Positions 6,501-43,355 are shown, counted from the first letter of the stretch. The stretch is 44,141 nt of DNA from an uncultured Acidobacteriota bacterium (GCA_963777605.1 CAVZRV010000025.1:1-44141), one strand, 5' to 3'. Notes: generated by a model not told the origin, from the sequence alone. Numbers and translations are program-made.

Positions 6501-9094
6501 GCCAGCGAAAAGTCGCACTGAAGTTTCTCCCCGAAAGCCTTCAGCGGGACACGATCGCCCGGAAGCGGTTCCTGCGGGAGGCCCAGTCGGCGGCGGACCC
6601 TGCGATCACCCTTTCATCTGCAACATCAAGGAGGTCGCTCAAACCGACGACGGCCAGGACTTCATCGTCATGGAGTACGTCGAGGGGCAGACGCTGAAGG
6701 AGCGGCTGGCCGAGGGGCCACTTCCACTGAAGCAGGCGCTGCAGGTGGGTGTCGAGGTTGCCGAGGCGCTGGAGGTCGCCCACCAGAAAGGGATCGTTCA
6801 CCGGGACCTGAAGCCCGCCAACATCATGATCACAGCCGCAGGGTCATGCCAAGATCATGGACTTCGGCCTGGCCAAGCGGATGATCACGGAGGAAGGGAA
6901 GGAAGAGGACCTGACCTCGGCCCTGACGCGGGAAGGTTCGACGCTGGGGACCCCGGCCTACATGTCTCCCGAGCAGATCCGGGCCCAACCGGTCGATCAC
7001 CGTTCGGACATCTTCTCCTTCGGGATCGTGCTCTACGAGATGCTGACCGGCGTCCACCCGTTCCGGAAGACCACCCAGAACGAGACCATCGGAGCCATTT
7101 TGCATGACGATCCGCCTCCGCTGGAAACCTACCGGGAGGACGTTCCCGAACTGATCCAGCACATCCTGAACCGAATGTTCGACAAGAGTCCGGAGCGGCG
7201 CTATCAGGACGCTCGCCAGATTCGGATCGACTTGGAGGAGGCTCTGGAAGCCCCGAATTCCCAGACCCGGCGGGCCGCCCTGTCCCAGCGCCGGAGGAGA
7301 GGAGTCTACTGGGCCGTGGCGGTGTTTCTGATCTTGTTGGGAGTTGCCGTTCCGCTGTACTGGCTTGGGCTCTTGGGTGTTGGTCCATCGGCTCAGACAG
7401 GTTTGGACTTCTCCAGCCCGCCTCGGCCACTGACGGCTCTGCCGGGTATTGAGAAGGATCCGGCGGTGTCCCCCGATGGAAATCACGTCGCGTTTGTCTG
7501 GAACGGCGGCGGAGACGGCTATTTTCATCTCTATTCCATGCAGATCGGGGGAGGAGAGCGGCTGCAACTGACTCACGCGAAAGCGGACGACCTGAGCCCG
7601 GTTTGGTCTCCAGGGGACAGCCGGATTGCGTTTCTGCGCTGGAGTGAAGGGCGACTCGAAATCTGGTGGGTCCCCTTCCCGACCGGACCGGAGAAGCTTT
7701 TCCACACTCTCCGCGGGTCCGACGAAGCGTCCCAGCCCGGCCTGGACTGGTCTCCGGACGGCCGATTCCTGGCAGTGGAAGATCAGTTGCCGGGCGGTAC
7801 GCGCCGTGCCGTCTATTTGCTCGACGTATCCAGTCACGAGGTAACTCAGGTAAGTTTCCCTCCGCCTGGTGCGGTGCCGGGAGACTCGCGTGCCGTCTTT
7901 TCGCCCGACGGCAGCGAGATTGCGTTCCTGCGCGAGTACCTGGGTTCCGTCTGCGACATCTATCTGCAATCAATCAGCGAGGGAAAGGCTGTCGGCAAAG
8001 CGCGAACCCTCATCTCTCGGGGTGCGAATGTTGAAGATCTGGCGTGGTCTCCGCTCGGCGACGAGGTCTTTTTCACAAGATTGGGCATACTCCAGAGAGT
8101 GCCACGCACTGGAGGAGACAGCACCGCGGTTGCTCCGGCTCAGGGTGCGGTGTCTCTGGCGATCGACCGGAAGAGAAACCGCCTGATCTATTCCGGAGTG
8201 CAGGAGGATTTCGACATTTGGCGAATGCCGGGGCCTGCGGCCGTCTCCCGGACAGAACCGGAACCCTTCATCCGGTCGACCCGAAACGAGGCCCATCCGC
8301 GCTATTCCCCGGACGGAATGTCCATTGCTTTCCACTCCAACCGGAGCGGTTCAACGAATATATGGCTGGCCGATTTCGACGGAACCAACCCGCGGCAACT
8401 CACATACCACCGGTGGGCCATCATCCCGCGCTGGGCTCCACGAGGGGACAGACTGGCCTTCCATAGCTTTTTCGGGGACTATGCGGAGCTCTTCTTGCTA
8501 GACCTGGACCGGGCCGAGCCGACACCGGTGACCGGCGTGAAGGCTAACCAGGGAGTCCCTGTCTGGTCACCTGACGGATCGTGGATCTATTTCAATCGGC
8601 AGCGGCGGTCCGAAGAGGCTGACGCTGAATGGCAGATCTGGAGGGTCAGGCCGAATGGAGAGGAACCCCAACGGTTGACTGAAAACGGAGTGTTCCCGTT
8701 CGGAGTTGACGAGGAATTTGTCTACTTTCTAAGGCCACTGGGAGATCCGAACTTCCCCTTGGAGGCCCAGGTCTGGAAGGCCCCGACAGAGGGAGGTGAA
8801 GCGAGTCTTGTCGTCGACGACGGCATGCTTCCAACCCGGTGCGACTTGTGGGAAGGGAAACTTGTGTACATCAACCGCCATGACCGAGTAGCTTTGCGCG
8901 TGCTCGACCTTGCAACCGGGCAGGCGACCACGACGGCTGTACTGGACGCCAGGTCATTTCCGATCGGTATTCGAGCGATATTCAGTGAAACTCTATGGGC
9001 CGGGATGAGTGTTTCGCCTGACGGAAAGTGGGTCCTCTACGGAAGGCCGGCGAGCATGGAAGCGGACCTAATGGTGATTGACTCGTCCCGGTAG
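6409..9094 (+). CDS. Receptor A: Hanks-type Ser/Thr kinase - TM - PD40 beta-propeller; frameshifts ~6500, ~6600, ~6835
   Basis: [55 protein letters not shown], then multiple SPDG repeats. Joined from ORFs 6373-7107 and 6857-9094. Confidence 0.85.
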
Positions 9095-9232
9095 CCGAGT
9101 CACTTGCCTCCGTTCGACCTGCCGGGTTTCAAATCGGAACCGTTCGGCTCCCTACTCCAAGTTTGCCCGCGGGTCTCACTTCGGCTTAGGCTTTTGAGCT
9201 CATCGAATGATTGAAGCAAAGGGAAACCGGGT

Positions 9233-9411
9233 CGGCGCGCCGGGCGGGTTTTCCATTGCGATCAATGTAGGCGGCGACTAAGATTGACCCACGAGCACTC
9301 AATCTCCCGGGAGGCGGACGTGGTCGAGCGGACGATCTCACACTACCGGATCGTCGAGAAGATCGGCGAAGGGGGGATGGGAGAGGTCTACCTGGCCGAG
9401 GATACCTCCCT
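9233..9411 (+). repeat. ~179-bp identical direct repeat (copy 2), including promoter TTGCGA-N17-TAAGAT at 9256-9284
   Basis: Identical by eye to 6322-6500. Confidence 0.9.
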
Positions 9412-11964
9412 CCAGCGAAAAGTCGCATTGAAGTTTCTCCCTGAAAGTCTTCAGCGGGACACGATCGCCCGGAAGCGTTTCCTGCGGGAACCCTGGAACA
9501 CCCCTTCATCTGCAACATCAAGGAGGTCGCTCAGACCGACGACGGCCAGGACTTCATCGTCATGGAGTATGTCGAAGGCGAGAGCCTTCAGGCGCGACTG
9601 GGACGGGGGCCGCTGCCGCTCAAGGAGACGCTTAAACTGGGAGCGGAACTGGCTGAGGCTCTGGAGTCGGCCCACGGCAAAGGGATCATTCACCGGGACC
9701 TGAAGCCGGCGAACGTCATGATCACCCCATCAGGCCATCCCAAGATCATGGACTTCGGGCTGGCCAAGAAGGTCGTTTCCGAAAACGGCCGGGAGCAGGA
9801 CATCAGTTCGGCACTGACGCGGGAAGGTTCGACCCTGGGGACCCCCGCCTACATGTCCCCCGAGCAGATCCGGGCCCAGCCGGTCGACCACCGTTCCGAC
9901 ATCTTCTCCTTCGGGATCGTGCTCTACGAGACGCTGACCGGCGTTCACCCGTTCCGAAAGAGCACCCAGAGCGAGACGACGGGGGCCATCCTCCACGAGG
10001 AACCTCATCTATTGGCAACCTATCTCAATGATGTTCCCGACCTGCTTCAGCACACCCTGCACAAAATGCTGGCCAAGAACCCGGACCAGCGGTATCAGAC
10101 CGTCCACGAGATCTGGACTAACCTGGAGGAGGTCCGGGAGAACTCTGGTCCCCAGCCTCTCGATGCGCAACGTGATGCGTACCGAGGCAGGCTGGGCATC
10201 AGGCTAGGTTTAGGGATTGCCGTGGTCGTACTCGGAATTGGCGTAATAGCGTTTTTTCTTGGCTGGATTCCCTGGGCCGGATCGAATCAACTCACTGCGT
10301 CGACCTTCAGAGCCGTTCCCGTTACATCCCTTCCCGGTGGGGAATGGAGGCCCGACTTTTCTCTAGGTGGGGACCGCATCGCGTTTCAATGGGCCGGACC
10401 GGATGCCGCGAATCCGAACAGCGATATCTGGGTGAAGCAGCTCCGGGGAGGCGAGCCACTGCGGCTCACTTTCGATCCAGCAATTGATCGCTACTCGCGC
10501 TGGTCTCCGGATGGGCAGGAAATTGCCTTCGCGCGTTGGCTCCCGGGCAAGATCGCTATCAAGACTGTCCCGTCGTTGGGAGGCCATGAAAGGCTCCTCG
10601 TTGAGGTCGCGCGGAACCAGCGATACGACCACGGCTTGACGGGTATTTCATGGGCTCCGGATGGCCGGACACTGGCGATCTCCTATCGACCGGGAGGCCA
10701 GCTCGAAGCCCGGGTCTTCCTCTTGAGCATCGATACAGCTGAAATCAGGCCGTTCAGTTCGCCGCCTGCTGGAAGTTATGGAGATTACTTCGCGCAGTTC
10801 TCTCCAGATGGCCGGACAATCGCCTTCTTTCGGCAGCAGGGCTACGCGGACTGGGACCTGTTTCTTCAATCGCTGGAAGCGACCGCACCGGAGCAGGTGA
10901 CTTCGGAGACCTTCCGAAATGCCGCGGGTCTTGCCTGGATGCCGAATGGCCGAGGGATTGTCTTCTCCGCTTCAGGTGCCGGGCCTGTGAGCCTCTGGCG
11001 AGTCGCTGTCCCCGGAAACAGGCCAATTCCATTGACGGACCAGGGAGCGTATTTGAGAAGGACGTTCCCGGCGTTTTCTCCTCGGGGGGACCGGCTAGCG
11101 TACACCGAAGTCGAACCCGGCAAAGCCGCCATCTGGCAATTCGTCAACCCACGAGTGAACGAGTCTTCAATCCAACCACACAGCCTGATCGCGTCGAGCC
11201 GATGGGACGGCAGAGCGGTACCTTCACCAGACGGGAAGCGGTTGCTCTTTGAATCAAACCGAACGGGCCCTTCTGAGATTTTTATATCGGAAGTCGACGG
11301 CTCTCAACAGAGACAGATTACATTCCTCAATGCCGACACCGGATCGCCGATGTGGTCGCCCGATGGCAGGCGGATTTGCTTCGATGCGCGAACTGGTGGA
11401 GTCGGAGACATTTTCGTCGTAGGCGATCAGGGTGGGGCTGTCCGCCAGTTGACGACAGACCCGGCGGAGGACGTCTCTCCCAGTTGGTCGTCGAACGGTC
11501 ATTGGATCTACTTCGCATCGAATCGAACGGGAAGACACGAAACCTGGAAGGTCCCCTCCGCTGGAGGCGAGGCAGTTCAAGTGACGCGGAACGGGGGATA
11601 CTACGCCCAGGAATCGTCTGACGGTTTTCTCCACTACACGAAGGCGATCGAGGGGAGTATCTGGAAATTGCCGTTAACAGGTGGCGAGGAAACTCTCGTA
11701 CTGGATCGAACGGTTCGGTGGGAGGACTGGGTCTTGACACCGGAGGGGATCTACTACGTGACCCGGAAGCAGGAGGGGACGGATTGGATCTGGGACTTCC
11801 GCTTCCTGACCCATCCGGATAGGGTGGACCAAGAGGTCTTCACCTGGAGAAGTAGTCACTCCGGCGACTGGCTCGCGGTGTCTCCGGATCAAAAATGGTT
11901 CTTCCCGACCGTGTTCGAGCCTTACAGAGGATCAGACATCATGCTGGTGGAGAATTTCCGCTAG
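9320..11964 (+). CDS. Receptor B: Ser/Thr kinase - TM - PD40 propeller; ~16-nt frameshifting deletion at ~9490 (possible pseudogene)
   Basis: GTG 9320 follows GGGAGG. Kinase motifs are split between ORFs 9284-9703 and 9562-11964. [26 protein letters not shown]; ends DIMLVENFR. Confidence 0.85.
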
Positions 11965-22500: not shown

Positions 22501-22675
22501 TGTGTCAGCGTACAGCATTGACAGGCAAGGCACGCGGTTTCTTTACGGACGGGAGAAGGCCCCAGATCCCCAAGCGGCCGAGGCTGAGACTCCGCCCTAC
22601 GCTCGCCTCAATCTGGTGATCAGCTGGTTCGCTGAATTGAACCGTCTTTGTCCCACGGAGCCGCCCGATGATTGA
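19596..22675 (+). CDS. Receptor C: wHTH - Ser/Thr kinase - TM - PD40 propeller; frameshifts ~19780 and ~19875
   Basis: The wHTH end IPRRGYQLVAEV is in frame with kinase GEGRMGEVW/HRDIKPSN/DFG/GTPDYMSPEQ. TM LWAPLAGAALITLLAVSSW; propeller ends LVISWFAEL. Confidence 0.85.
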
Positions 22676-25465
22676 CCGGGCCATCTCTCACTACCGGATT
22701 ACTCGAAAGCTCGGCGAGGGCGGGATGGGGGAAGTCTACCTGGCCGAGGATACCTCCCTCCAGCGAAAAGTCGCACTGAAGTTTCTCCCCGAAAGCCTTC
22801 AGCGGGACACGATCGCCCGTAAGCGTTTCCTGCGGGAGGCGCAATCGGCCGGAATCCTGGAACACCCCTTCATCTGCAACATCAAGGAGGTCGCTCAGAC
22901 CGACGACGGCCAGGACTTCATCGTCATGGAGTATGTCGAAGGCGAGAGTCTTCAGGCGCGACTGGGACGAGGGCCGCTGCCGATCAAGGAGACCCTGAAA
23001 CTGGGAGCGGAACTGGCCGAGGCGCTGGAGTCGGCCCACGGCAAAGGGATCATTCACCGGGACCTGAAGCCGGCCAACGTGATGATCACTTTAAGCGGGC
23101 ATCCCAAGATCATGGACTTCGGTCTCGCCAAGAAGGTCGTTTCCGAAAACGGTAGGGAGCAGGACATCAGTTCGGCCCTGACACGAGAAGGATCGACCTT
23201 GGGTACGCTCTCCTACATGTCGCCGGAACAGATCCGGGGCGAGGTAGTCGACGCCCGATCCGACATCTTCTCGCTCGGAGTCGTGCTCTACGAGATGGTG
23301 ACGGGCGTTCATCCCTTCCGGAGGGCCCAGTCGGCGGAAACGACGAGCGCGATCTTGAGGGAGGACCCGGCGCCGCTGCGACCCGTTACGTAGGACGAAG
23401 TTCCAGAGCTTCTCGTGCACACGCTCCAGAAGATGCTGGAGAAGGACCCGGCGGACCGCTACCAGTCGGTACATGAGGTGCTGACGAACCTGAGCCGCCT
23501 GCGCGAGGACTCGGGAAGAGTGAGGATCGTCGGAACCGGAGCGGCCTCACCGGTTCCCGTTCTGGGCTTGGATCGCCTGTGCCGCCGCACTGGGAATTGG
23601 CGTTGGATCTGGCGGCGGTGCGTACCTTTTGGTATAAGTCCGGATGATTCTCCGACGCCCACTCCCTTGCTGCGCTTCTCCATCCAGTTGCCGGAGGGGG
23701 AACGCCTGTTCGGCTATTCCAGACACGCCGTGGCGGTGTCGCCCGACGGCCGCTGGGTCGCCTACGAGAGCTTCAAGCCGAGCGATCGGGAGACACTCCC
23801 GGATCGAGATTACGCGATGAACCTGCAGCGTCTGGACCGGAACGAGGTACGCCGAATACCTGGCTACAACCTCAATCCGTTCTTCTCGCCCGACAGCGCG
23901 GCAGTTGGGTTTCGTGGAGCGTGTCGCGGCCGGAAGCTTTCTATTGCGGAAAACCGTGGTCGAAGGCGGGCCCATCGAAACAGTGGCCAGTTTGAAGATG
24001 GCACCCTTTGGTTGTGCCTGGCTGCCGGATGACACCATCATCTTCTCCCCGGGGATCCAGAGCGGCCTTTTCGCCGTCCCGGCGGTTGGAGGGGAACCCA
24101 GGCCCCTTACTCAACTCGATCAGGAAGCCAGTGAATTAAGCCATCGGTTGCCGTCGGTCCTGCCCGACGGCCGCACCATCCTGTACACTGCGATCCGGTT
24201 TTCCGACCATAGCTGGTCCCGGGCCCGGATCGTGGCCCAACGTCTCGACACAGGCGAGAAGAAGGTGCTGATTGAGGGCGGCTCGGACGGCCGTTATGTG
24301 ACATCGGGGCATCCTGCTGTTCGCCCGGGAAGGCCGCTTGATGGCCGCCCGATTTGATGCCGATCGCCTGGAGATCCTGGGGGAGGCCATCCCGGTGCTC
24401 GACGGTATGGTCCACGCAATCAATACAGTCGGATCCACTACCGAGAGCGGCACTGCGCAATATGGAACGAGCCGCGGCGGCCTCTTGGTTTACGCGCCGG
24501 GCTCCGTCTATCCGGAGAGTTCACGTGCAGGTCATGTGGGTAGATCGGCGCGGTCGGGAGGAACCGCTCGAACTGCCGGCCAGGAGTTGGACTTGCCCGA
24601 GAATTTCGCCGGATGGGGGTGAAGTCTTGCTGGCGAGTTCTTATCCACCGCGAGACCTATGGACTTACGATCTGGAGCGAAAGACACTTCAGCGGCAGAC
24701 CGTGGAGGGTTCGGCTATGAGGGGAATCTGGGGGCCCGAGCAGGGGACCCTCACCTTGAACTGGGATCCTGAAGGGCCGGAAGGGATCTGGCTCAAGAAG
24801 ATTGATTCCGGCTCGGAACGGGGCGAAGAGCTGGTGTCGTCCGGCATCGAGGGCCTCCCGGTGGCCGGTTCCTGGTCTCCTGACGGGAGAAGACTCGCTT
24901 TCTCCATGATAACGCTGAAAACTGTCCACGACATTTGGATCCTCGACCGGCAAGGAAGAGCCGAGCCATGGCTCCAGACCCCCTTCAGTGAGTGTCACCC
25001 TGAATTCTCCCCCGATGGCGGCTGGCTGGTTTACTCCTCGGACGATTCGGGACGCAGAGAAATCTACGTACGTCCGTTTCCAGGGCCCGGAAGACCGCTC
25101 CAGGTCTCGACAGAGGGCGGGATCGAGCCCTGTTGGGCGAGGGACGGAGGGGAGATTTTCTACCTCCGAACCGATCCCTCCCAGACGACGTTTTATGCCG
25201 TCGGAGTCCAGATTGGCGGTAAAGACGGCGAGCTACAGCTGGGCGTGCCAAAGCGGCTCTTTTCCGGACCCTTCCAGGGGGATTCTATCCATTTCGCGGC
25301 AGTTATGAAGTGAGCCCGGACGGCCGTTTCCTGGTGCTTAAGCGCGACCGCCAAGATACTCAGTCCAGAATACTGGAGGCCATGGCTCCTACCCGCATCG
25401 AGTTGGTCCAGAACTGGTTCGAGGAACTTAGTGCCAAGGTTCCGGTGGAGTCACCGAATGATTGA
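22668..25465 (+). CDS. Receptor D: Ser/Thr kinase - TM - PD40 propeller; many frameshifts
   Basis: Kinase in ORF 22668-23393; propeller pieces in ORFs 23415, 23905, 24338 and 24354. The final frame reads ELVQNWFEELSAKVPVESPND, with TGA 25463-25465. Confidence 0.75.
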
Positions 25466-28127
25466 CCAGACCATCTCCCACTACCGGATCATCGAGAAGC
25501 TCGGCGAGGGCGGGATGGGGGAGGTCTACCTGGCCGAGGACACCTCCCTGCCACGGAAGGTGGCCCTCAAGTTTCTCCCCGAAACCCTGCAGCGGGACGA
25601 GATTGCCCGCAAGCGGTTCCTGCGGGAGGCCGAGTCCGCAGCAGACCTGGATCATCCGTTCATCTGCCACATCAACGAAGTGGCCCAAACTGACGACGGT
25701 CAAGACTTCATCGTCATGGAGTACGTTGAGGGACAGACGCTCAAGGAGCGACTCGCCGAGGGGCCTCTGCCCCTGAAGCAGGCGCTGCAGGTTGGTGTCG
25801 AGGTCGCCGAGGCACTGGAGGTGGCCCATCAGAAGGGGATCGTACACCGGGATCTGAAACCGGCCAACATCATCCTGACGCCACAGGGTCATGCCAAGAT
25901 CATGGACTTCGGCCTGGCCAAGCGCATGATCACGGAGGAGGGCAAGGAAGCAGGACCTGACCTCGGCCCTGACGCGGGAGGGATCGACGCTCGGGACCCC
26001 GGCCTACATGTCCCCCGAGCAGATCCGGGCCCAGCCGGTCGATCACCGTTCCGACATCTTCTCCTTCGGGATCGTGCTCTACGAGATGTTGACCGGCGTC
26101 CACCCGTTCCGAAAGACCACCCAGAGCGAGACGACCGGGTCCATCCTCCACGAGGAGGTTCCACCGCTGTCCCGGTACCTGGACGAAGCGCCCGACCTGC
26201 TCCAGCACACCCTGCACAAGATGCTGGCCAAGAGCCCGGACCAGCGGTATCAGACCGTCCACGAGATCCGGACTAACCTGGAGGAGGTCCGGGAGAGTTC
26301 CGGTCCTCACATGCTGGAAGCGGGAGCCAATTCACGGGGACAAACGAAACCCTTCTGGACAGGTTTGATTTCGGTCGCCGTTCTACTCGTCGCGGGTGCA
26401 GCCGCGGTTTTCTTGGGATGGATTCCCCTCAGCGGATCGGATCAGTCCACCTCCGAACCCCTCCAGGCCGTTCCGTTCATGAATATGCCTGGAGGTGCGT
26501 GGTGTCCGGATTTCTCTCCATTGGGTGACCGAATTGCCTTCCACGGGACCGTCGAAGACGAGGCGAAGGTTGGTTTCGATATTTGCGTCAAGCAGATCGG
26601 ACCAGGGGATCCGCTTCCGCTGACAACAAGTCCAAATTGGGATCGATATCCGTGCTGGTCTCCGGACGGACTGCAAATCGCATTCGCGCGCTGGTTCCCA
26701 GACAAGATTGCCATCATGACAGTGCCAGCGTTGGGAGGTCTGGAACGACCGATTGCCGAAGTTCCCTGGAAAGGACCTTGACAACCAACTCAGAGGAATA
26801 TCTTGGTCCCCGAGACAAATCGCGACTTGCTCTCACATATCGACCTGTCAGCGAAGTTGAGTCTCGCATATTTCTTCTCGATGTTGACACAGGCGAGCTG
26901 AGACGCTTTTCTTCGCCTCCAGCGGGGATAGATGGAGATTTCTACGGAGAATACTCACCGGACGGTGACCGGATAGCCTTCTTTCGGGCAAAGACTCCCC
27001 CAAGGCTCGATTCGGACCTCTACATCCAGCCGCTCTCTGGCGGCGAAGCCCAGCCACTGACGAATGAACACTTCCAGGCGGTGTCGGGACTTGCGTGGAT
27101 GCCAAACGGCGAAGAAATCATCTTTTCTGCGGGGCCTCAGGAAAAGGAGCTGCTCTGGCGAGTTGATGTTTCAGGAGGGAAGCCGAAGCCAATCCTGGGT
27201 TCCGGAGAGAACCTGAGGCGGCAGTATCCCGCCGTTTCACAGAACGGTCGCCGTCTCGCATATAACCAGGTTAAAACTTGGGGATCGACCATTTGGCGGT
27301 TTCCAAATCCCAGGGTGAGCAACTCAACCGAGGCACCGAGATGTCTCGTCTCCTCGAGTCGATGGGATGGTGGAGCGCTCCCCTCACCAGACGGGAGCCG
27401 GATACTCTTCGTTTCGGATCGAACCGGAAGGATGGAACTTTACCTCTGCAATAGCGATGGCACCCAACAGAGACCACTCACCGATCGAAAGGCTTATTGC
27501 GGGGCATCTGCCTGGTCACCCGATGGCCGCCAAATCTGTTTCGATGGCCAGGTTGGCACTAATTTCGATCTTTTCCTGATGAATCCTGACGGAAGCAATA
27601 TTCACCAGTTAACCGATCATCCCGCGACGGACGCCACACCGAGTTGGTCAAGAGATGGAAAGTGGATCTACTTTGCGTCGAACCGCACTGGAAGATTTGA
27701 AACCTGGAAGGTCCCGGCAGCGGGAGGAGAACCGCTCCAGGTCACTCACCAGGGAGGATTTAAAGCTCAGGAGTCCGAAGACGGCTTCCTGTACTACACA
27801 AAAGGTGAAGTGGGGGAGATTTGGAAGACCGCTCCCGGGAGAGGAGAAGAAACTCCGGTTCTCCAACAGAAACTGTACTGGTGGTACTGGGCCCTGAGCT
27901 CGGATGGAATCTACTTCATCACCCTGGAGAAAGCCGCAGGCGGGCAAAAGCCGGTCATCCACTTTCTCGATTTACAGAGCGGGACGACAGTACACGATGT
28001 CCTGACGCTCGATCTCTTGAGTTCCAGCACGACGATAGAGCTGTCTCCCGACGGACGGTGGTTTCTCTTCAGTGTGCAGGAGCCCTCGGGAGCTCCGGAG
28101 ATCATGCTGGTGGAGAATTTCCGATAG
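25458..28127 (+). CDS. Receptor E: Ser/Thr kinase - TM - PD40 propeller; frameshifts ~25950 and ~26780-26810
   Basis: [29 protein letters not shown]; TM FWTGLISVAVLLVAGAAAVFLGWIP. The propeller resembles receptor B and ends EIMLVENFR. Confidence 0.85.
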
Positions 28128-34851: not shown

Positions 34852-37188
34852 TCACCGACCGGCATTTTTGGATTGTGCGATTTCCTCGTGGACGCCGGGG
34901 GAGGCGAGATAGCCCCCCATCTGCTTATAGACCTGCTCAATGCTGGGTTCGAGGCCCATCTTCTCGTAGATGTTTTCAATCCGCGGATGAGTGAAATATT
35001 TGGCGGCAAAGATGTTTGCGCGTAAGTGGACAAGTTGTGTGTCGTGTGAGTTAAAGGCTCTTTCCAGCCAGGCTATCCCTTCGTTCACTTCGCCCAGGAA
35101 GAGATAGATAAGGGCGATCTGGGCTGGAGAATAACTTTCTTTCGCGGGAGGATCGATGAGGTCACTCAGCAACAGGGAGGCTTCTCCCTTTCTCCCGGCA
35201 GCGGCATAACCCCAACCCAGCAGGGGCTTCGCCCAGGCCCATTTCTCGAGTATCTCGATCGTCTCATCCAGTCTCCCCTGCCCCTGCAGTGCAAACGCCA
35301 GTAGCGATTTTGCATAACGGTTCAGGGGATCCATTTCAATGGTGGATTCAAAATGCTCGATTGCCTCATCGAAATGGGCCATGCAAAGCAGCACCCAGCC
35401 GAGATTGACACTGGCAAAAACCGAAAGAGGATCTACGTGCAGTGCAGCCCTCGCCTCCCTCAGAGCTTCGCCCCAGCGCGCCAGGGGCACAAGGCACCAG
35501 CTATAGAACACATGGGCATCTGCGTAGTTCGCGTTCAGCTTGATGGCCCGCTGAAACGCCCGCTCTGCACTCGCCCACTCCCAGTCGTAAAATCGCACGA
35601 ATCCATATGAGGTGTGGGCTTCCGGGAGATTGTAGTCGAGCTTCAGCGCTTCCTCCGCAGTACTCTTCGCTTTTGCAAATGCCTCCTCTTCGCTCAAATA
35701 TCCGAAATGGCCGGCATCCGCATAACAGGTCGACAGGCCGGCCAGCGCGGGAGCATAAGAAGGATCTTCTTGAATCGCCTGTCTGAAGCAGCGGATCGCC
35801 TTTTCGAGGTCCTCGGCAGACATCTTCTTCTGAAAGTAACGCCCTTTCAGATAGGAGTTGTAAGCATCCAAGGACCTTGGTCTCCCCCTTCCCGGGTGCC
35901 TGCGTTCTCTGACCGTGAAACCTGTCTCGAGGGCCGAGGCAATTTCGCCAGTGACCTCGGCCTGAACGGCGAACAAGTCCTCAAACTGACGATCGAAGAT
36001 CTCCGCCCAGATCTGGCGCTCCGAGGCCACTTCCACAAGACTGCAAACGATGCGTAAATGATTCCCTTCCCGTCGGATACTCCCTTCCAGGACTGCGTCC
36101 ACCCCAAGCTCGACTCCGATCGTTCGCAGATCTTTGTGACTTCCTTTGTAACGCATCATCGAGGCCCGGGAAATCACACGAAGCCCCGAGGCCTGGGACA
36201 GGCGGGTGATAATCTCTTCCGTAATACCGTCAGAGAAATACTCGTTTTCCGGGTCAGTACTTAGATTTCGAAAAGGGAGGACGGCCAGAGAACGCAACTC
36301 CGATTCTCCCAAGGCGATGCTCGACCACTGCTCCGCGATTCTGACAAAATGGTCCAGAACCACCTCAACGGAACCATACCGCCGCGTCTTCTCCTTTGAC
36401 AGCATCATCGAGATCGTTGCCTCGAGCTCAGGCGAGCAGTTGGGAGCGTACATGCGAAGCGGGTCCTGGGCGGTTTCACGGATGGCGATGAGGGTCTCAA
36501 GGGCGTTTGCGCGGCGGAACGGATGGATGCCGGCGATCATTTCGTAAAGAATTATGCCAAAGGAGAAAATGTCGCTGCGCGCATCCAGAGGATCCCCAGC
36601 AAGCTGCTCCGGAGACATGTACGCGAGCGTTCCCCTGAGCACTGGAATGGAATCTTCAGTTTCAGCGTCATCCACGACTCGAGGGATACGCATAGCAAGT
36701 CCGAAATCGAGCACCTTTATGTGGCCTTCGGGGGTGAAGGCCAGGTTTGCGGGTTTCAGATCCCGATGAATAATGCCTCTCTCGTGTGCTTTTGCCAGAG
36801 CCTCGGCAATCTCAATTCCAGTCCTGAGGGCTTGTTTGATCGACAGCGGACCTTCTTTGAGTCGATCTTTGAGAGTCCTGCCCTCAACGAACTCCATCCC
36901 TATGAATGGGTTCTTCTGGTAATTTCCGACGCTGTAGACCTTACAGATAAAGGGGTGGTCCAATGCAGCCGCCAGCCTGGCTTCAGACAGAATCCTGTCC
37001 CAGGCTTTCTTGGTATCAAACTCGCCTGCAGCAAAGAATTTCAATGCGGCGCGCCGGCCCAGCGTCGTGTCCTCGGCAAGATAGACACTCCCCCCTCCCC
37101 CTTTCCCGATTTTCTCCAAAATCAGGTACTGGTCTACCTGCTGCCCGATCAGAGCTTCATCAGTAATTACAGCGCCACGTTTCTCCAC
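34852..37188 (-). CDS. Cytoplasmic Ser/Thr kinase - TolB-N-like domain - TPR repeats
   Basis: [34 protein letters not shown]; SLAVLPFRNLS.DPENEYFSDGITEEII; TPR-like helices; no TM. The GTG overlaps the precursor stop (TAGTG). Confidence 0.9.
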   Translation of the reverse strand: MEKRGAVITDEALIGQQVDQYLILEKIGKGGGGSVYLAEDTTLGRRAALKFFAAGEFDTKKAWDRILSEARLAAALDHPFICKVYSVGNYQKNPFIGMEFVEGRTLKDRLKEGPLSIKQALRTGIEIAEALAKAHERGIIHRDLKPANLAFTPEGHIKVLDFGLAMRIPRVVDDAETEDSIPVLRGTLAYMSPEQLAGDPLDARSDIFSFGIILYEMIAGIHPFRRANALETLIAIRETAQDPLRMYAPNCSPELEATISMMLSKEKTRRYGSVEVVLDHFVRIAEQWSSIALGESELRSLAVLPFRNLSTDPENEYFSDGITEEIITRLSQASGLRVISRASMMRYKGSHKDLRTIGVELGVDAVLEGSIRREGNHLRIVCSLVEVASERQIWAEIFDRQFEDLFAVQAEVTGEIASALETGFTVRERRHPGRGRPRSLDAYNSYLKGRYFQKKMSAEDLEKAIRCFRQAIQEDPSYAPALAGLSTCYADAGHFGYLSEEEAFAKAKSTAEEALKLDYNLPEAHTSYGFVRFYDWEWASAERAFQRAIKLNANYADAHVFYSWCLVPLARWGEALREARAALHVDPLSVFASVNLGWVLLCMAHFDEAIEHFESTIEMDPLNRYAKSLLAFALQGQGRLDETIEILEKWAWAKPLLGWGYAAAGRKGEASLLLSDLIDPPAKESYSPAQIALIYLFLGEVNEGIAWLERAFNSHDTQLVHLRANIFAAKYFTHPRIENIYEKMGLEPSIEQVYKQMGGYLASPGVHEEIAQSKNAGR

Positions 37189-37433
37189 TAACGACGTGGT
37201 GACTCAGAGAATGAAAAGCGAACGAGCGGCACCGCATACGTGTCAGCGCCCTCTTTGTACTTCTCCCCGAGTCTCTCCATGAGAGCATCTCGCAATTCGT
37301 CCGTAGTGAATTTCCCTTCGGACACCGAATTGATGAAAGATTCGTCGTCAAGATCTGTTTTCAATTTCCTGGAAACCTCCTTGGACTTGCCGAAAACATC
37401 ATCAAGAAACTTGCGAGCTTCCTGGTCGCTCAT
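37188..37433 (-). CDS. Putative RiPP precursor peptide, 81 aa, Nif11-like leader
   Basis: ATG 37433 lies 6 nt after GAGAGGAG. Sequence MSDQEARKFLDDV...EGKFTTDELRDAL..EGA-DTYAVPLVRFSFSESPRR. Directly downstream of the YcaO gene. Confidence 0.7.
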   Translation of the reverse strand: MSDQEARKFLDDVFGKSKEVSRKLKTDLDDESFINSVSEGKFTTDELRDALMERLGEKYKEGADTYAVPLVRFSFSESPRR

Positions 37434-39875: not shown

Positions 39876-41042
39876 TTAGTATCGGGCCACGACCTCGCTG
39901 AAATAGCGCTCAAATTCGTCGATGTGAATACCTGCATGGAAATCGAGCGCCGCCCTGCGCGAAGCCCTTGAAAGAGTCTCGTACTCCTCCCGGCTGCAGA
40001 CCAGTTTCTTGAGCGCCGATATCCAAGGGGCTAAATCCTGCCTGGGAACTTTCGGATTTACAGAGACTTTCCCAGCTTCGATTCCCAACTCCCACTCGCA
40101 AATGGCATTAACGGGAATTACGAAATCAGTTCCCAATTTGGCCTCGGGAAGACCTCCAACTCGGCTGGCGATGACCGGGATGCCTCTCAGCATCGCCTCA
40201 ATGACAATCACGGGAAAAGCTTCCTGCCACAGAGAGGGAGCCAGGAGGATACGAGTACGATCGAGGATCGTGTCGATGTCGGGGTGAGGCTCGATCATCC
40301 TGATGTTCGGAACCGTTCTGATTGCCGCGACCGCCGAGTCGGAAGTTGCCCAGGAGCGGACCGCCCCAAACTCAACATCAGGGAACGCTTTCGCTAACTC
40401 GACGAATATTGTGAGCCCTTTGATCTCCGATGGATTGACCATCAATACGAGACCCCGTTCGAAGGAACTGAAGTCTGGAAACGGGCCGCCACCATACCCC
40501 GGGAAAGGCAGGGCTACCGACTCGATCCCTCCGTATGTCCATAGGTAGTTTCGAAGGAATTGACAGACTACGACAGCCCCTCCCGCCGTCTTCATCAACT
40601 CCAAGGCCCGATTGTCGGGGAATACCGAAAACGGCCCGAAGGGGAGCACCTCGGTGCAATGAACGGCGACGACGCATCTCTTGCGGTAGTCGTCGGGGAG
40701 AGACGCCATATTCCGATACGTCTGCGATTCGCTGAACAGAATCACATCCGGACGAAAACGCAGGACGGTTGCCCTTGCGACTGCGCCATAGTCTTCGATT
40801 CGGCGGCAGGCAACAACCTGCGTGCCATTATCTTCCAGACAAAGGCAGTTCTCGTCTTCGTCAACCAGTCTGCAAGTCGGATTCGACGGGGGGTCTTCGC
40901 ACTGGCCTTCGGGACCAATCAATGAAACCGCCGCTCGCACTCGCCATCCCCTCTCGCCAAGGAGGTGGGCGAGACACCGATTGATCTTGACGCCCGCGTT
41001 CCAGCTGAAATAGGCTCTGTCCTGAAGAAAGACAATTCGCAC
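39876..41042 (-). CDS. GT-B (GT4-like) glycosyltransferase
   Basis: MRIVFL start; VNPSEIKG; PSLWQEAFPVIVIEAMLRGIPVIASRVGGLPEA (E-x7-E). Confidence 0.88.
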   Translation of the reverse strand: MRIVFLQDRAYFSWNAGVKINRCLAHLLGERGWRVRAAVSLIGPEGQCEDPPSNPTCRLVDEDENCLCLEDNGTQVVACRRIEDYGAVARATVLRFRPDVILFSESQTYRNMASLPDDYRKRCVVAVHCTEVLPFGPFSVFPDNRALELMKTAGGAVVVCQFLRNYLWTYGGIESVALPFPGYGGGPFPDFSSFERGLVLMVNPSEIKGLTIFVELAKAFPDVEFGAVRSWATSDSAVAAIRTVPNIRMIEPHPDIDTILDRTRILLAPSLWQEAFPVIVIEAMLRGIPVIASRVGGLPEAKLGTDFVIPVNAICEWELGIEAGKVSVNPKVPRQDLAPWISALKKLVCSREEYETLSRASRRAALDFHAGIHIDEFERYFSEVVARY

Positions 41043-41106
41043 TGGCTTTGGCTCAGTCTATCACCCGACCGGGGTGATCCCAAGACTGGATTTCGAGGGC
41101 TTTTCC

Positions 41107-42075
41107 ATGAATGCCCATTCGGTCCTCATCTGCGGAACCAACTATGGTCGGACCTATCTCGAGGCTGCGCAATTGAGGCCCGACACCTACATTGTCCGAG
41201 GGATACTCGCCCGGGGCAGTGAACGTTCGACAACCCTCGCCGGAGAGTCGAGGTTGCCGCTGTACACGAGCGTTAGTCAAGTGCCCGACTTCATCGATAT
41301 TGCCTGCGTCGTGGTGGGTTCCTCAGTGGAGGGAGTCGTGACTGGACTCCTCAACCGGGGCATCCATATTCTCGCGGAACACCCCCAGAGACCAGAAACC
41401 CTTAAGCTCGATCTGGACAAGGCAGCCAAGCAGAATCTCTGTCTTCACGTCAATCCGCATTTCAGCGACTTGACTGCCCCAGTTGCCTTTATTCGGCACT
41501 GCGGTGAGAGACTGCAGGAGTCAGAACCTCGAATGATTCAAGTCATTGCTGCTGACCGCGCCTTGTATGGAACGCTGGACCTGATCCACCAGTCCTTCGG
41601 CTCCTTATCCACCCTGCGCTTGGATGGTGTCGATACGAAGGGTGAATTCATCGTGATCGACGGAACCTTCGGTCGTTCCAGTCTGTCGCTGTGGCTCCAG
41701 TCTGCCCGAGACGGCAACCATCGGATCCCTGACGGAAGTTCCCGGTATTCTGTCGATATGAGAGTCGCAATTGTCTTCGGCACAGGAACACTGAGCCTGT
41801 TGTCGCTTGCAGGTCCAGTCATCTGGAACGACAACTTACTCCAGTCGACGGACTCGACGAAGCCAATATGGGACCGCGTCTATGAAGCGGTCGAGACTCG
41901 TGTTGCATTGTATGAGCAAAGGATCAGGGCAAATGTCGTTGCCTTGGATCGTCTGCGCAGGCAAATTGAAACTGGCTGTGTCCCACCGAGCCAGTCACCT
42001 GGAGTTCTGCTTGAAATCAGCCAGGTATGGGAAGACGTCTCCTCAAAGATCAACTGTGCCGAAGTTCACGATTAG
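41107..42075 (+). CDS. Gfo/Idh/MocA oxidoreductase of the thiazolinyl imide reductase (Irp3/PchG) type
   Basis: VLICGTNYGRTYL..GILARGSERS..LA...LPLYTS...DIACVVV...RGIHILAEHP follows the Irp3/PchG N-terminal pattern as I recall it; C-terminal GTLSL..GPVIW. Start is ATG 41107 or GTG 41074. Confidence 0.8.
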   Translation: MNAHSVLICGTNYGRTYLEAAQLRPDTYIVRGILARGSERSTTLAGESRLPLYTSVSQVPDFIDIACVVVGSSVEGVVTGLLNRGIHILAEHPQRPETLKLDLDKAAKQNLCLHVNPHFSDLTAPVAFIRHCGERLQESEPRMIQVIAADRALYGTLDLIHQSFGSLSTLRLDGVDTKGEFIVIDGTFGRSSLSLWLQSARDGNHRIPDGSSRYSVDMRVAIVFGTGTLSLLSLAGPVIWNDNLLQSTDSTKPIWDRVYEAVETRVALYEQRIRANVVALDRLRRQIETGCVPPSQSPGVLLEISQVWEDVSSKINCAEVHD

Positions 42076-42086
42076 CGAGATACCGA

Positions 42087-42581
42087 CTATTCTTCAGGCC
42101 AGCAGATTTGGCCGGTCGCTTCTCCCGTGCCTCCGAAAAATGCAATACGCAAAAGGACGTACCCGGTTGCCCCCTCATAACGCCCCGTTCCACCAGTGAC
42201 GACATGGGTTTCGAGATTGAAGAAATCGCCGACAGCATCGTAAGCCGGCCAGAAATTTACGCCCACCATCATGGTCTGGATTTCTCCGTGTTTACCCTCA
42301 AAGATGCTCTCCCCCCTCCAGACCGAACTATCCCCGAAGGTCGGGAACTCGAAATCGTAGCCGATGCTGTATGCGGTCCAGGTCCCGTTGATGGTCCCAA
42401 CCATGTCAGCGGTTCTACAGGGAGCGCGAAACGCTCCACAATCCTCCTGTTCAGAGAATATGGCGTAGTCGTACAAGTGCACGTTAACCTTCTCGCACCT
42501 CTTCTCGGCGGCTGCAGTCCCGGCGAGGATGAACACCGAGAAGAGAAACAGTCCGGCCAGTAACCCAGTTCCTGACTTCAT
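42087..42581 (-). CDS. Small secreted beta-rich protein, allene-oxide-cyclase/dirigent-like barrel
   Basis: ATG 42581 follows AAAGGAG. Signal peptide ending AAA; VTGGTGRYEGATG motif. Confidence 0.65.
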   Translation of the reverse strand: MKSGTGLLAGLFLFSVFILAGTAAAEKRCEKVNVHLYDYAIFSEQEDCGAFRAPCRTADMVGTINGTWTAYSIGYDFEFPTFGDSSVWRGESIFEGKHGEIQTMMVGVNFWPAYDAVGDFFNLETHVVTGGTGRYEGATGYVLLRIAFFGGTGEATGQICWPEE

Positions 42582-42907: not shown

Positions 42908-43355
42908 ATGGGGCCGGCTGAGGAATTCCAGGTGGGGGAATGGCGAGTTCGTCCACCGCTCAATGAAATTCAGAACAGCAGCGAGGTGCGCCACCTCGAA
43001 CCCAAGGTGATGAATGTCCTCTGCTACCTGGCGGGCCACGCGGGAGCGGTGCTTACAAAGGAACAGATAATCCAGGCAGTCTGGCCGAATACCTTTGTCA
43101 CGGATTGGGTACTCTCCCATGCGATATCAGAAGCCCGCAAAGCACTCGGAGATGATGCGGGAGTTCGTTTCCTCGGTGGCGATTGCCTGTGTCCATCTTG
43201 GCCTCGGTAACAAGGACCAGGCCCTGGGCTGGCTAGAGCAAGCCTGCCAGGAAAGAAACCAGAGATTGATTGGCCTGAAGACACATTGGCGGTACGATCC
43301 GCTTCGCGCCGAACCCCGCTTTCAGGAACTGCTCCGGCGGATGAATTTCCCATAG
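42908..43355 (+). pseudogene. Internally deleted wHTH-TPR regulator
   Basis: The wHTH runs to RKALGDDA (~43158), then jumps out of frame to the terminal TPR helix QALGWLEQA..ER...YDPLRAEPRFQELLRRMNFP. Confidence 0.75.

Follow-up and report, generated by a model that had tools for sequence, protein, structure and literature searches.

A YcaO-linked, Irp3-like enzyme of an uncultured Acidobacteriota bacterium: a candidate azoline reductase for ribosomal peptides

What would an enzyme built like the thiazoline reductases of non-ribosomal peptide synthetase (NRPS) lines do beside a gene for a ribosomal-peptide heterocyclase? The question is raised by contig CAVZRV010000025.1 (C25) of GCA_963777605.1, the genome of an uncultured Acidobacteriota bacterium (6.73 Mb in 53 contigs, 96.7% complete); the entire 44,141-bp contig is the window analysed here. 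One gene in it encodes a relative of Irp3/YbtU (yersiniabactin, Yersinia) and PchG (pyochelin, Pseudomonas), and nearby lie genes for a YcaO protein and for a short precursor peptide. Comparative evidence makes it, on balance, probable that the enzyme uses NAD(P)H to reduce an azoline formed by the YcaO, in this case an oxazoline at Phe75-Ser76 of the precursor, in a pathway to a peptide that is synthesized ribosomally and modified post-translationally (RiPP). What the computations show is to which families the reductase and the YcaO belong, which fold the reductase has, that a precursor exists and is conserved, and that the gene neighbourhood is conserved as well.

The reductase open reading frame (ORF) runs from 41074 to 42075 on the plus strand, 333 residues counted from the GTG at 41074. 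The ATG at 41107 (MNAHSVL..., 322 residues) is the more likely start, because the homologues and the database copy (P0003, 322 residues) begin there. The product passes PF01408 (43.9 bits, cut-off 24) and, with residues 151-251, PF21390 (Irp3-like_C; 32 bits, gathering cut-off 27). The latter was the sole C-terminal match in the Pfam scan, which reported no generic Gfo/Idh/MocA C-terminal family. TIGR01761 (thiazolinyl imide reductase) scored 165 bits (E 3.3e-48, profile positions 3-256 of 350), well above the general PF01408. Among all PDB sequences, phmmer found Irp3/YbtU as the sole relatives (4gmf/4gmg, E ~5e-25; two distinct sequences at E≤0.01). An AlphaFold2 model from an alignment of 17 sequences (predicted local distance difference test score 88.3, predicted template modelling (TM) score 0.86) has Irp3 as its best fold match (4gmg/5kvq, TM 0.84). 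Irp3 chains occupied Foldseek ranks 1-10 (E 8e-26 to 9e-25, TM 0.82-0.84), the first other entry listed was GnnA (E 6.4e-16, TM 0.68), and the remaining generic Gfo/Idh/MocA members listed were no better. Sequence and model therefore identify the enzyme as Irp3-like rather than as a generic sugar dehydrogenase. An earlier, sequence-only reading of this DNA had proposed the Irp3/PchG-like identity and named grouping with generic Gfo/Idh/MocA enzymes as what would speak against it; the identity holds, on an intact frame, and no such grouping was seen. In the 17-sequence alignment of the clade 35 columns are invariant, and the enzyme retains every one of them.

The two-domain fold, the Rossmann N-terminus, the His of the EHP motif and a GPV(I/L)W segment are shared with Irp3 and PchG, from which the window reductase differs in being only ~25% identical and ~50-60 residues shorter (322 vs 372-385 residues). 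Irp3 and PchG partner NRPSs with heterocyclization and carrier domains, whereas the partners here are a YcaO and a ribosomal precursor; a free peptide would accordingly serve as substrate, with an oxazoline in place of a thiazoline in the window. SrbI, a related myxobacterial enzyme, is reported to use NADPH to reduce a thiazoline tethered to a carrier (PMC10127202). The EHP motif, which the sequence-only reading had noticed among the N-terminal motifs, is indeed present; its His corresponds to Irp3 His101, and the motif occurs in 178 of 187 family sequences. That reading also saw NPHF in place of Irp3's NTFY and took it as a hint of an altered active site. The difference is real: in the phmmer alignment wiNTFY of Irp3 faces hvNPHF, which puts Phe119, directly after the conserved His118, opposite Tyr128. 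It does not mark use in RiPP pathways. His-Phe is the commonest state at this site (134 of 187; His-Tyr 17, His-Trp 9), and two NRPS-linked Desulfobulbus enzymes (L042, L050) likewise have His-Phe, reading NSHF, so NPHF is no signature of YcaO-linked enzymes. The Irp3-like Phe-Tyr or Leu-Tyr occurs in 13 of the 187, mainly in long proteins (~373-381 residues). His101 and Tyr128 of Irp3 are said to have been proposed as acid/base residues by Meneely and colleagues in 2012 and 2016, with Tyr128 as the proposed general acid. In the window enzyme, the invariant His next to Phe119 is a plausible proton donor. For Irp3, another report places hydride transfer before protonation from a general acid (PMC7465668).

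The YcaO gene lies 1.26 kb from the reductase gene and is the only one in the genome. Its product scores 271 bits with PF02624, 235.5 bits with TIGR03604 (cut-off 219.25) and 96.5 bits with TIGR03882, and matches LynD (E 2.2e-141), TruD (E 9.8e-137) and MusD (E 4.8e-121) over the full length, C-terminal tail included; residues 30-756 align with LynD residues 9-771. Judging from these alignments, it is homologous along its whole length to heterocyclases with proven azoline formation. The missing PxPxP-like C-terminus in the Nif11-type group of YcaO proteins was considered as an argument against azoline formation and dropped, since the tail can be aligned with those of LynD and TruD almost up to their last residues. 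The sequence-only reading had named the YcaO as the sole azoline source nearby. The window was also said to lack an NRPS, and none of the 41 window ORFs scanned contains an AMP-binding, PP-binding or Condensation domain.

Whether this pairing is a peculiarity of one contig can be judged from the relatives. A word-indexed search returned 20 reductase relatives; when a profile was run against 1.84 billion cluster representatives, 955 matched at E≤1e-3, and the stricter limits of E≤1e-10 and E≤1e-30 left 500 and 317, the 317 being representatives of 50%-identity clusters, mostly of the short form. No relative came out of the metagenomes when these were scanned with an alignment (A3) of the five sequences closest to the enzyme. 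The loci surveyed were 39 from species genomes and the best 80 of 129 metagenome relatives, 119 together, in which neighbours were sought by tblastn with proteins of the window and of the relatives; many of the metagenome contigs are just 1-3 kb long. At 34 of the 39 genome loci and 42 of the 80 metagenome loci there is a YcaO gene, its distance from the reductase gene ranging from 8 to 3964 bp with a median of 1294 bp. Where at least 6 kb is present on both flanks, the YcaO gene is within 4 kb at 35 of 38 loci (24 of 27 genome, 11 of 11 metagenome). The three without it are L021 and two Desulfobulbus loci with NRPS and polyketide synthase (PKS) genes, the only two loci with condensation domains near a relative; the third Desulfobulbus locus, whose flank is short, has a thioesterase and a phosphopantetheinyl transferase. 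Pfam and NCBIfam scans of 11 loci agreed with the context assignments and verified YcaO in 8 of them. The sequence-only reading would have been undermined by homologues that always sit with NRPS or PKS genes, and this is not the pattern found. Acidobacteriota and several Gammaproteobacteria have the YcaO-reductase pairing, and the precursors that go with it are of two unrelated types.

The tightest linkage of the reductase family is to a protein kinase. In 58 of the 63 loci having the kinase, it lies directly upstream on the same strand, with a median gap of 19 bp. In these loci the kinase gene runs up to the reductase start or a little past it, as in L016 (kinase 6534-10004, reductase 10001-10936) and 57 others, and the kinases are of the kinase-tetratricopeptide repeat (TPR) or kinase-AAA_16-TPR types related to TIGR03903. 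In many loci of the Nif11-type group, which consists of the window and mostly acidobacterial loci, a class I S-adenosylmethionine (SAM) methyltransferase is encoded close to the reductase, with counts of 10 among the 39 genome loci and 42 among the 80 metagenome loci; it is absent from the window, and in the relatives it best fits O-methyltransferase models, only below their cut-offs. A sedolisin-type peptidase is frequent in Nif11-type clusters, and an acyl-CoA ligase or a GT1-type glycosyltransferase occurs sometimes. A SagB-like gene was found neither in the window nor in the Nif11-type loci, the SagB-like genes of this genome being confined to other contigs.

Phylogenetic trees separate the two contexts. 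The NRPS-linked enzymes are ~380-393 residues long, and one of them scores 327.7 bits on TIGR01761, against 162-206 bits for the YcaO-linked relatives. In a 58-row tree with an unresolved deep backbone, the context labels need a minimum of two changes (shuffled mean 16.4). Five of the six NRPS-labelled rows form one starred clade, and the sixth (L039) is on a very long branch, probably due to ORF extraction. In a 188-row FastTree rooted on a generic Gfo/Idh/MocA member, the clade spanning the NRPS-labelled rows contains 23 proteins (median 381 residues) and no YcaO-linked row, with weak support (65). The fragmentary L033 and L047 are absent from both trees and L039 from the larger one. The genome's own generic member (contig C6) is an outgroup on a very long branch and reaches only 44.7 bits on TIGR01761, leaving the window gene as the single true TIGR01761-like gene of the genome.

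The precursors suggest where the modification could occur. The 119 loci contain 81 precursor-like ORFs, 70 of them unique, and 66 of the 70 end in x-S-[EQ]-x-P-x-x. Most often the end reads SEAPGF (23), SEPPGF (13) or SEVPGF (12), and the residue before the invariant Ser is Phe in 31 of the 66 tails, Tyr in 17, Leu in 15, Ile in 2 and Val in 1. A second precursor subfamily ends in Y-S-E-P-P-G-F or a close variant instead of F/L-S-E-A/V-P-G-F (L070, L071, L081, L085, L090, L105, L107, L113, L114, L118, L121, L124, L125, L133 and L134). The window precursor, the sole such ORF in the genome, ends in ...VRFSFSESPRR. It matches the L034 precursor (phmmer E 4.5e-5) and can be aligned with 42 further precursors, and throughout this 43-sequence alignment Ser76 and Pro79 do not vary. 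Three relatives pass TIGR03798 (Nif11 leader), whereas the window precursor gives no match at E 0.001, and its membership in the family rests on phmmer, the alignment and a profile built with it included. In 18 of the 66 tails, neither Ser nor Thr nor Cys occurs among the nine residues ahead of the invariant Ser, which singles this Ser out as the best cyclodehydration candidate. The window precursor has no Cys in its 81 residues, and an invariant Ser in Cys-free cores fits the oxazoline substrate that the sequence-only reading had deduced.

The other precursor type belongs to a Cys-rich group found in Shewanella, Pseudoalteromonas, Marinomonas, Endozoicomonas and other Gammaproteobacteria, and in Thermoanaerobaculia. 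Here a ThiF-YcaO fusion of ~820 residues is encoded immediately upstream of the reductase, and in 20 of 22 loci it is preceded by a precursor of 127-352 residues with 17-22% Cys in short repeats. Since Cys-derived thiazolines are the known substrate type of the reductase family, these precursors give the strongest indirect support for reductases that act on YcaO products, and the system is a candidate for poly-thiazoline/thiazolidine formation. The precursors (L027:6489-7343, L043:6382-7440, L046:6054-6887, L030:6193-6621 and 16 further loci) have CxPCxxxxC-type repeats and a conserved helical N-terminus, and belong to no NCBIfam family. The Shewanella locus scanned with NCBIfam is headed by an ORF (L027:5146-6273) that matches NF040572, 'heme-binding protein, FMP type', with 243.7 bits, and similar ORFs with no family assignment head the operons at L043:5193-6236 and L046:4907-5917, likewise preceding the precursor in Marinomonas and Pseudoalteromonas. 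Nine Thermoanaerobaculia loci (L029, L030, L031, L035, L036, L040, L041, L044 and L053) have a SagB-like nitroreductase-family gene between the ThiF-YcaO and reductase genes, at ~9400-9980 in most. Because this gene joins the Irp3-like gene, these nine clusters encode both a candidate azoline oxidase and a candidate azoline reductase.

Combining these data, we propose that a C=N reductase of the Irp3/PchG fold was recruited from assembly-line chemistry into a ribosomal peptide pathway. The LynD-type YcaO would bind the Nif11-like leader of the precursor and cyclodehydrate the invariant Ser76 onto the Phe75 carbonyl, giving an oxazoline. The reductase would then pass a hydride to ring C2 and protonate the nitrogen via the EHP His and/or His118, and an oxazolidine, or an open-chain form to which it gives rise, would be the product. 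The cluster also encodes a glycosyltransferase family 4 (GT4) enzyme and a kinase, which may be further tailoring or regulatory partners. While the substrate, the site (Ser76) and the product of the reductase are what we infer, the observation behind the sequence-only reading is confirmed, and its idea of azoline reduction on a RiPP is supported by comparative genomics through the recurrent YcaO, the precursor and the fold.

Unsubstituted (free-NH) oxazolidines are hydrolytically labile. The product may therefore be stabilised, open to an aldehyde and a hexapeptide, or be reduced again. We consider it rather unlikely that the pathway ends in ring opening to a C-terminal peptide aldehyde or in a second hydride transfer to a reduced amide. 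If the ring opens, the unsubstituted oxazolidine, an N,O-acetal, would do so spontaneously and hydrolysis would cut the backbone; the variable core would be freed as a peptide aldehyde with Phe, Tyr or Leu at P1, and S-E-x-P-G-F would leave. Such ring opening would account for six conserved C-terminal residues behind variable preceding ones.

The reductase might instead meet the YcaO-modified peptide at another C=N or another site, such as a thiazoline or methyloxazoline elsewhere in the core, an amidine or another activated amide. YcaO enzymes also make amidines and thioamides, Cys is present within the nine residues before the invariant Ser in 23 of the 66 unique tails, and the Cys-rich system suggests thiazolines as the ancestral substrate. 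We give this a small but real chance, since the window precursor has no Cys anywhere, the 18 tails described above offer no other nearby Ser, Thr or Cys, TfuA was not found in the 96.7%-complete genome, and the YcaO is of the LynD/TruD/MusD azoline type throughout. A role in sugar chemistry, in which a Gfo/Idh/MocA sugar or small-molecule oxidoreductase prepares or modifies a sugar for the adjacent GT4 enzyme, draws on the PF01408 Rossmann domain, on a fold common to generic sugar dehydrogenases and on the divergent GT4 gene, 64 bp from the ATG at 41107. It is quite improbable given the PF21390 C-terminal domain with no generic C-terminal family reported, Foldseek E-values some ten orders of magnitude better for Irp3 than for sugar enzymes, and a neighbourhood in which glycosyltransferases occur at just 9 of 119 loci, against 76 of 119 for YcaO, the window GT4 gene being unique to its locus. 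The enzyme could also be a classical thiazolinyl imine reductase that serves in trans an NRPS encoded elsewhere in the genome, as Irp3 and PchG are stand-alone genes and three Desulfobulbus relatives are in NRPS-PKS loci. A search of the genome for an orphan siderophore NRPS, which the sequence-only reading had proposed, found 16 PF00668 matches, all on contigs C3 and C35 and none on the reductase's contig. Seven of the 16 were examined: six have HHxxxDG, one does not span the motif, and the heterocyclization motif DxxxxD is in none. These NRPS genes are apparently fragmented, and the NRPS-linked enzymes are longer, score far higher on TIGR01761 and form a separate clade, which makes an NRPS partner highly improbable. 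The NRPS genes at C3:17-28 kb and C35:264-273 kb have near-identical condensation domains, many short frames and some in-frame stops, and may be either decayed or mis-assembled repeats.

Several observations weigh against azoline reduction by the window enzyme, and some of them would fit a cluster that is a rearranged, decaying or silent copy whose reductase no longer partners the YcaO. The window reductase gene is inverted and 3.9 kb from the kinase gene that it normally follows. The precursor ends in SPRR where at least 90% of the relatives show G and F, so that its C-terminus looks degenerate, and a fragment like IS200 insertion sequences lies at the contig end. The reductase gene is present in 2 of 137 genomes of the class, its own included, and in 1 of 401 sampled across the phylum, its own, and the many genes that are split in other parts of the window and of the genome hint at decay or at errors of assembly. 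Set against these are five intact cluster frames, the complete set of invariant clade columns and the conserved Ser and Pro of the precursor, and we think such decay improbable. The second genome of the class with the gene (G086) has the customary order of YcaO, precursor, kinase and reductase; its locus appears to duplicate one already counted and was left out of the tallies. Other points against the reading are these. L021 is a complete locus with kinase and reductase and has no YcaO within 10 kb, the neighbourhoods of the four closest relatives (P0004-P0007, 46-58% identity) lie outside the counted loci, and the window GT4 gene has no counterpart among 120 related loci. The enzyme is below the curated TIGR01761 cut-off (165 vs 188.8 bits) and has Phe at the Irp3 Tyr128 position. 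The invariant Ser could instead be a target of the kinase or a glycosyltransferase, and a stable oxazolidine product is uncertain.

The cluster genes and their surroundings are listed in Table 1. The minus-strand genes are transcribed in the order GT4, YcaO, precursor and kinase; the precursor gene sits 131 bp downstream of the YcaO gene, and its stop overlaps the kinase start. In window-like loci a GT1/EryCIII-like glycosyltransferase replaces the GT4 enzyme (10 matches, some from duplicate contigs). The kinase matches TIGR03903 ('TOMM system kinase/cyclase', for thiazole/oxazole-modified microcins) in part. The two ORFs that overlap or face the end of the reductase gene were kept out of the cluster because neither has a counterpart in related loci. 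A promoter and terminator scan of the window gave 1 promoter-like site, against 2.6 expected. Positions 2143-28127 are filled by an array of paralogous genes for Ser/Thr kinase-PD40 beta-propeller and CadC-like winged-helix-PD40 proteins. Several of these seem split (kinase 22668-23393 and PD40 24354-25313; kinase 25431-26276 and PD40 26583-28127), and the split ORFs may be frameshifts, pseudogenes or assembly errors.

Table 1. The putative reductase cluster and adjoining features, with positions on the 44,141-bp contig
Feature	Position	Strand	Basis or remark
Ser/Thr protein kinase with C-terminal TPR repeats, 778 aa	34852..37188	-	PF00069 163 bits
Precursor peptide, 81 aa, Nif11-like leader, Cys-free	37188..37433	-	phmmer, alignment
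Three-domain YcaO heterocyclase (winged-helix/RiPP recognition element, leader-binding, YcaO), 760 aa	37564..39846	-	PF02624, TIGR03604, TIGR03882
GT4-family glycosyltransferase	39876..41042	-	PF13692 42.5 bits, PF00534 38.9 bits
Irp3/PchG-like NAD(P)H reductase, 322 aa	41107..42075	+	PF01408 + PF21390, TIGR01761, AlphaFold2 model
178-aa ORF	42027..42563	+	no counterpart in related loci
182-aa ORF, N-terminal signal-like hydrophobic segment	42087..42635	-	convergent with reductase; no family match
Short CadC-like winged-helix ORF just past cluster	42908..43210	+	
IS200/IS605-like transposase fragment, contig end	43843..44139	-	

How does the locus compare with known systems? With the cyanobactin pathways (PatD/LynD/TruD/MusD) it shares the YcaO type and a leader-guided precursor with a short core; it differs in the Nif11-like leader and in the S-E-x-P-G-F-type family motif, which stands in place of the cyanobactin recognition sequences. 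Cyanobactin pathways use the PatA/PatG subtilisin-like proteases, and an oxidase domain of PatG turns azolines into azoles, whereas a reductase takes the redox slot of the window cluster. The linear azol(in)e systems (SagBCD, McbBCD) likewise have a TIGR03604-type YcaO with a leader-binding domain, and TOMM systems have the kinase to which the TIGR03903-related one here is akin. In those with a flavin mononucleotide (FMN)-dependent dehydrogenase the known optional second step is oxidation, while the window has a reductase. In pyochelin, N-methylation comes after thiazoline reduction. A similar pairing of reductase and methyltransferase may be seen in the many Nif11-type relatives with a SAM methyltransferase, which the window lacks.

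To our knowledge, YcaO-made azolines in ribosomal peptides are kept or oxidised to azoles, and reduction to azolidines is treated as an NRPS speciality. A full-text literature search, which did not extend to subscription-only papers, found no paper on a YcaO paired with an Irp3-type or azoline reductase. In a 2022 review, reduction to thiazolidines or oxazolidines is given for NRPS reductive domains only, and only FMN-dependent oxidation for RiPPs (PMC9811515).

Our analysis describes a conserved and fairly large Irp3-like clade that is tied to YcaO genes and paired with two precursor families. Such a clade suggests that RiPP azoline chemistry has a missing branch, a reductive one, and it points, for ribosomal peptide natural products, to a reductive step not yet described. 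The x-S-E-x-P-G-F end defines an uncharacterised, mainly acidobacterial peptide family. The Cys-rich sister system, present in named Shewanella, Pseudoalteromonas and Marinomonas isolates, may offer experimental hosts. If the product is a stable azolidine, the enzyme would be an added tool for peptide engineering. If the ring opens, the pathway would yield ribosomal peptide aldehydes or reduced amides, warheads that have so far come from NRPS reductase domains.

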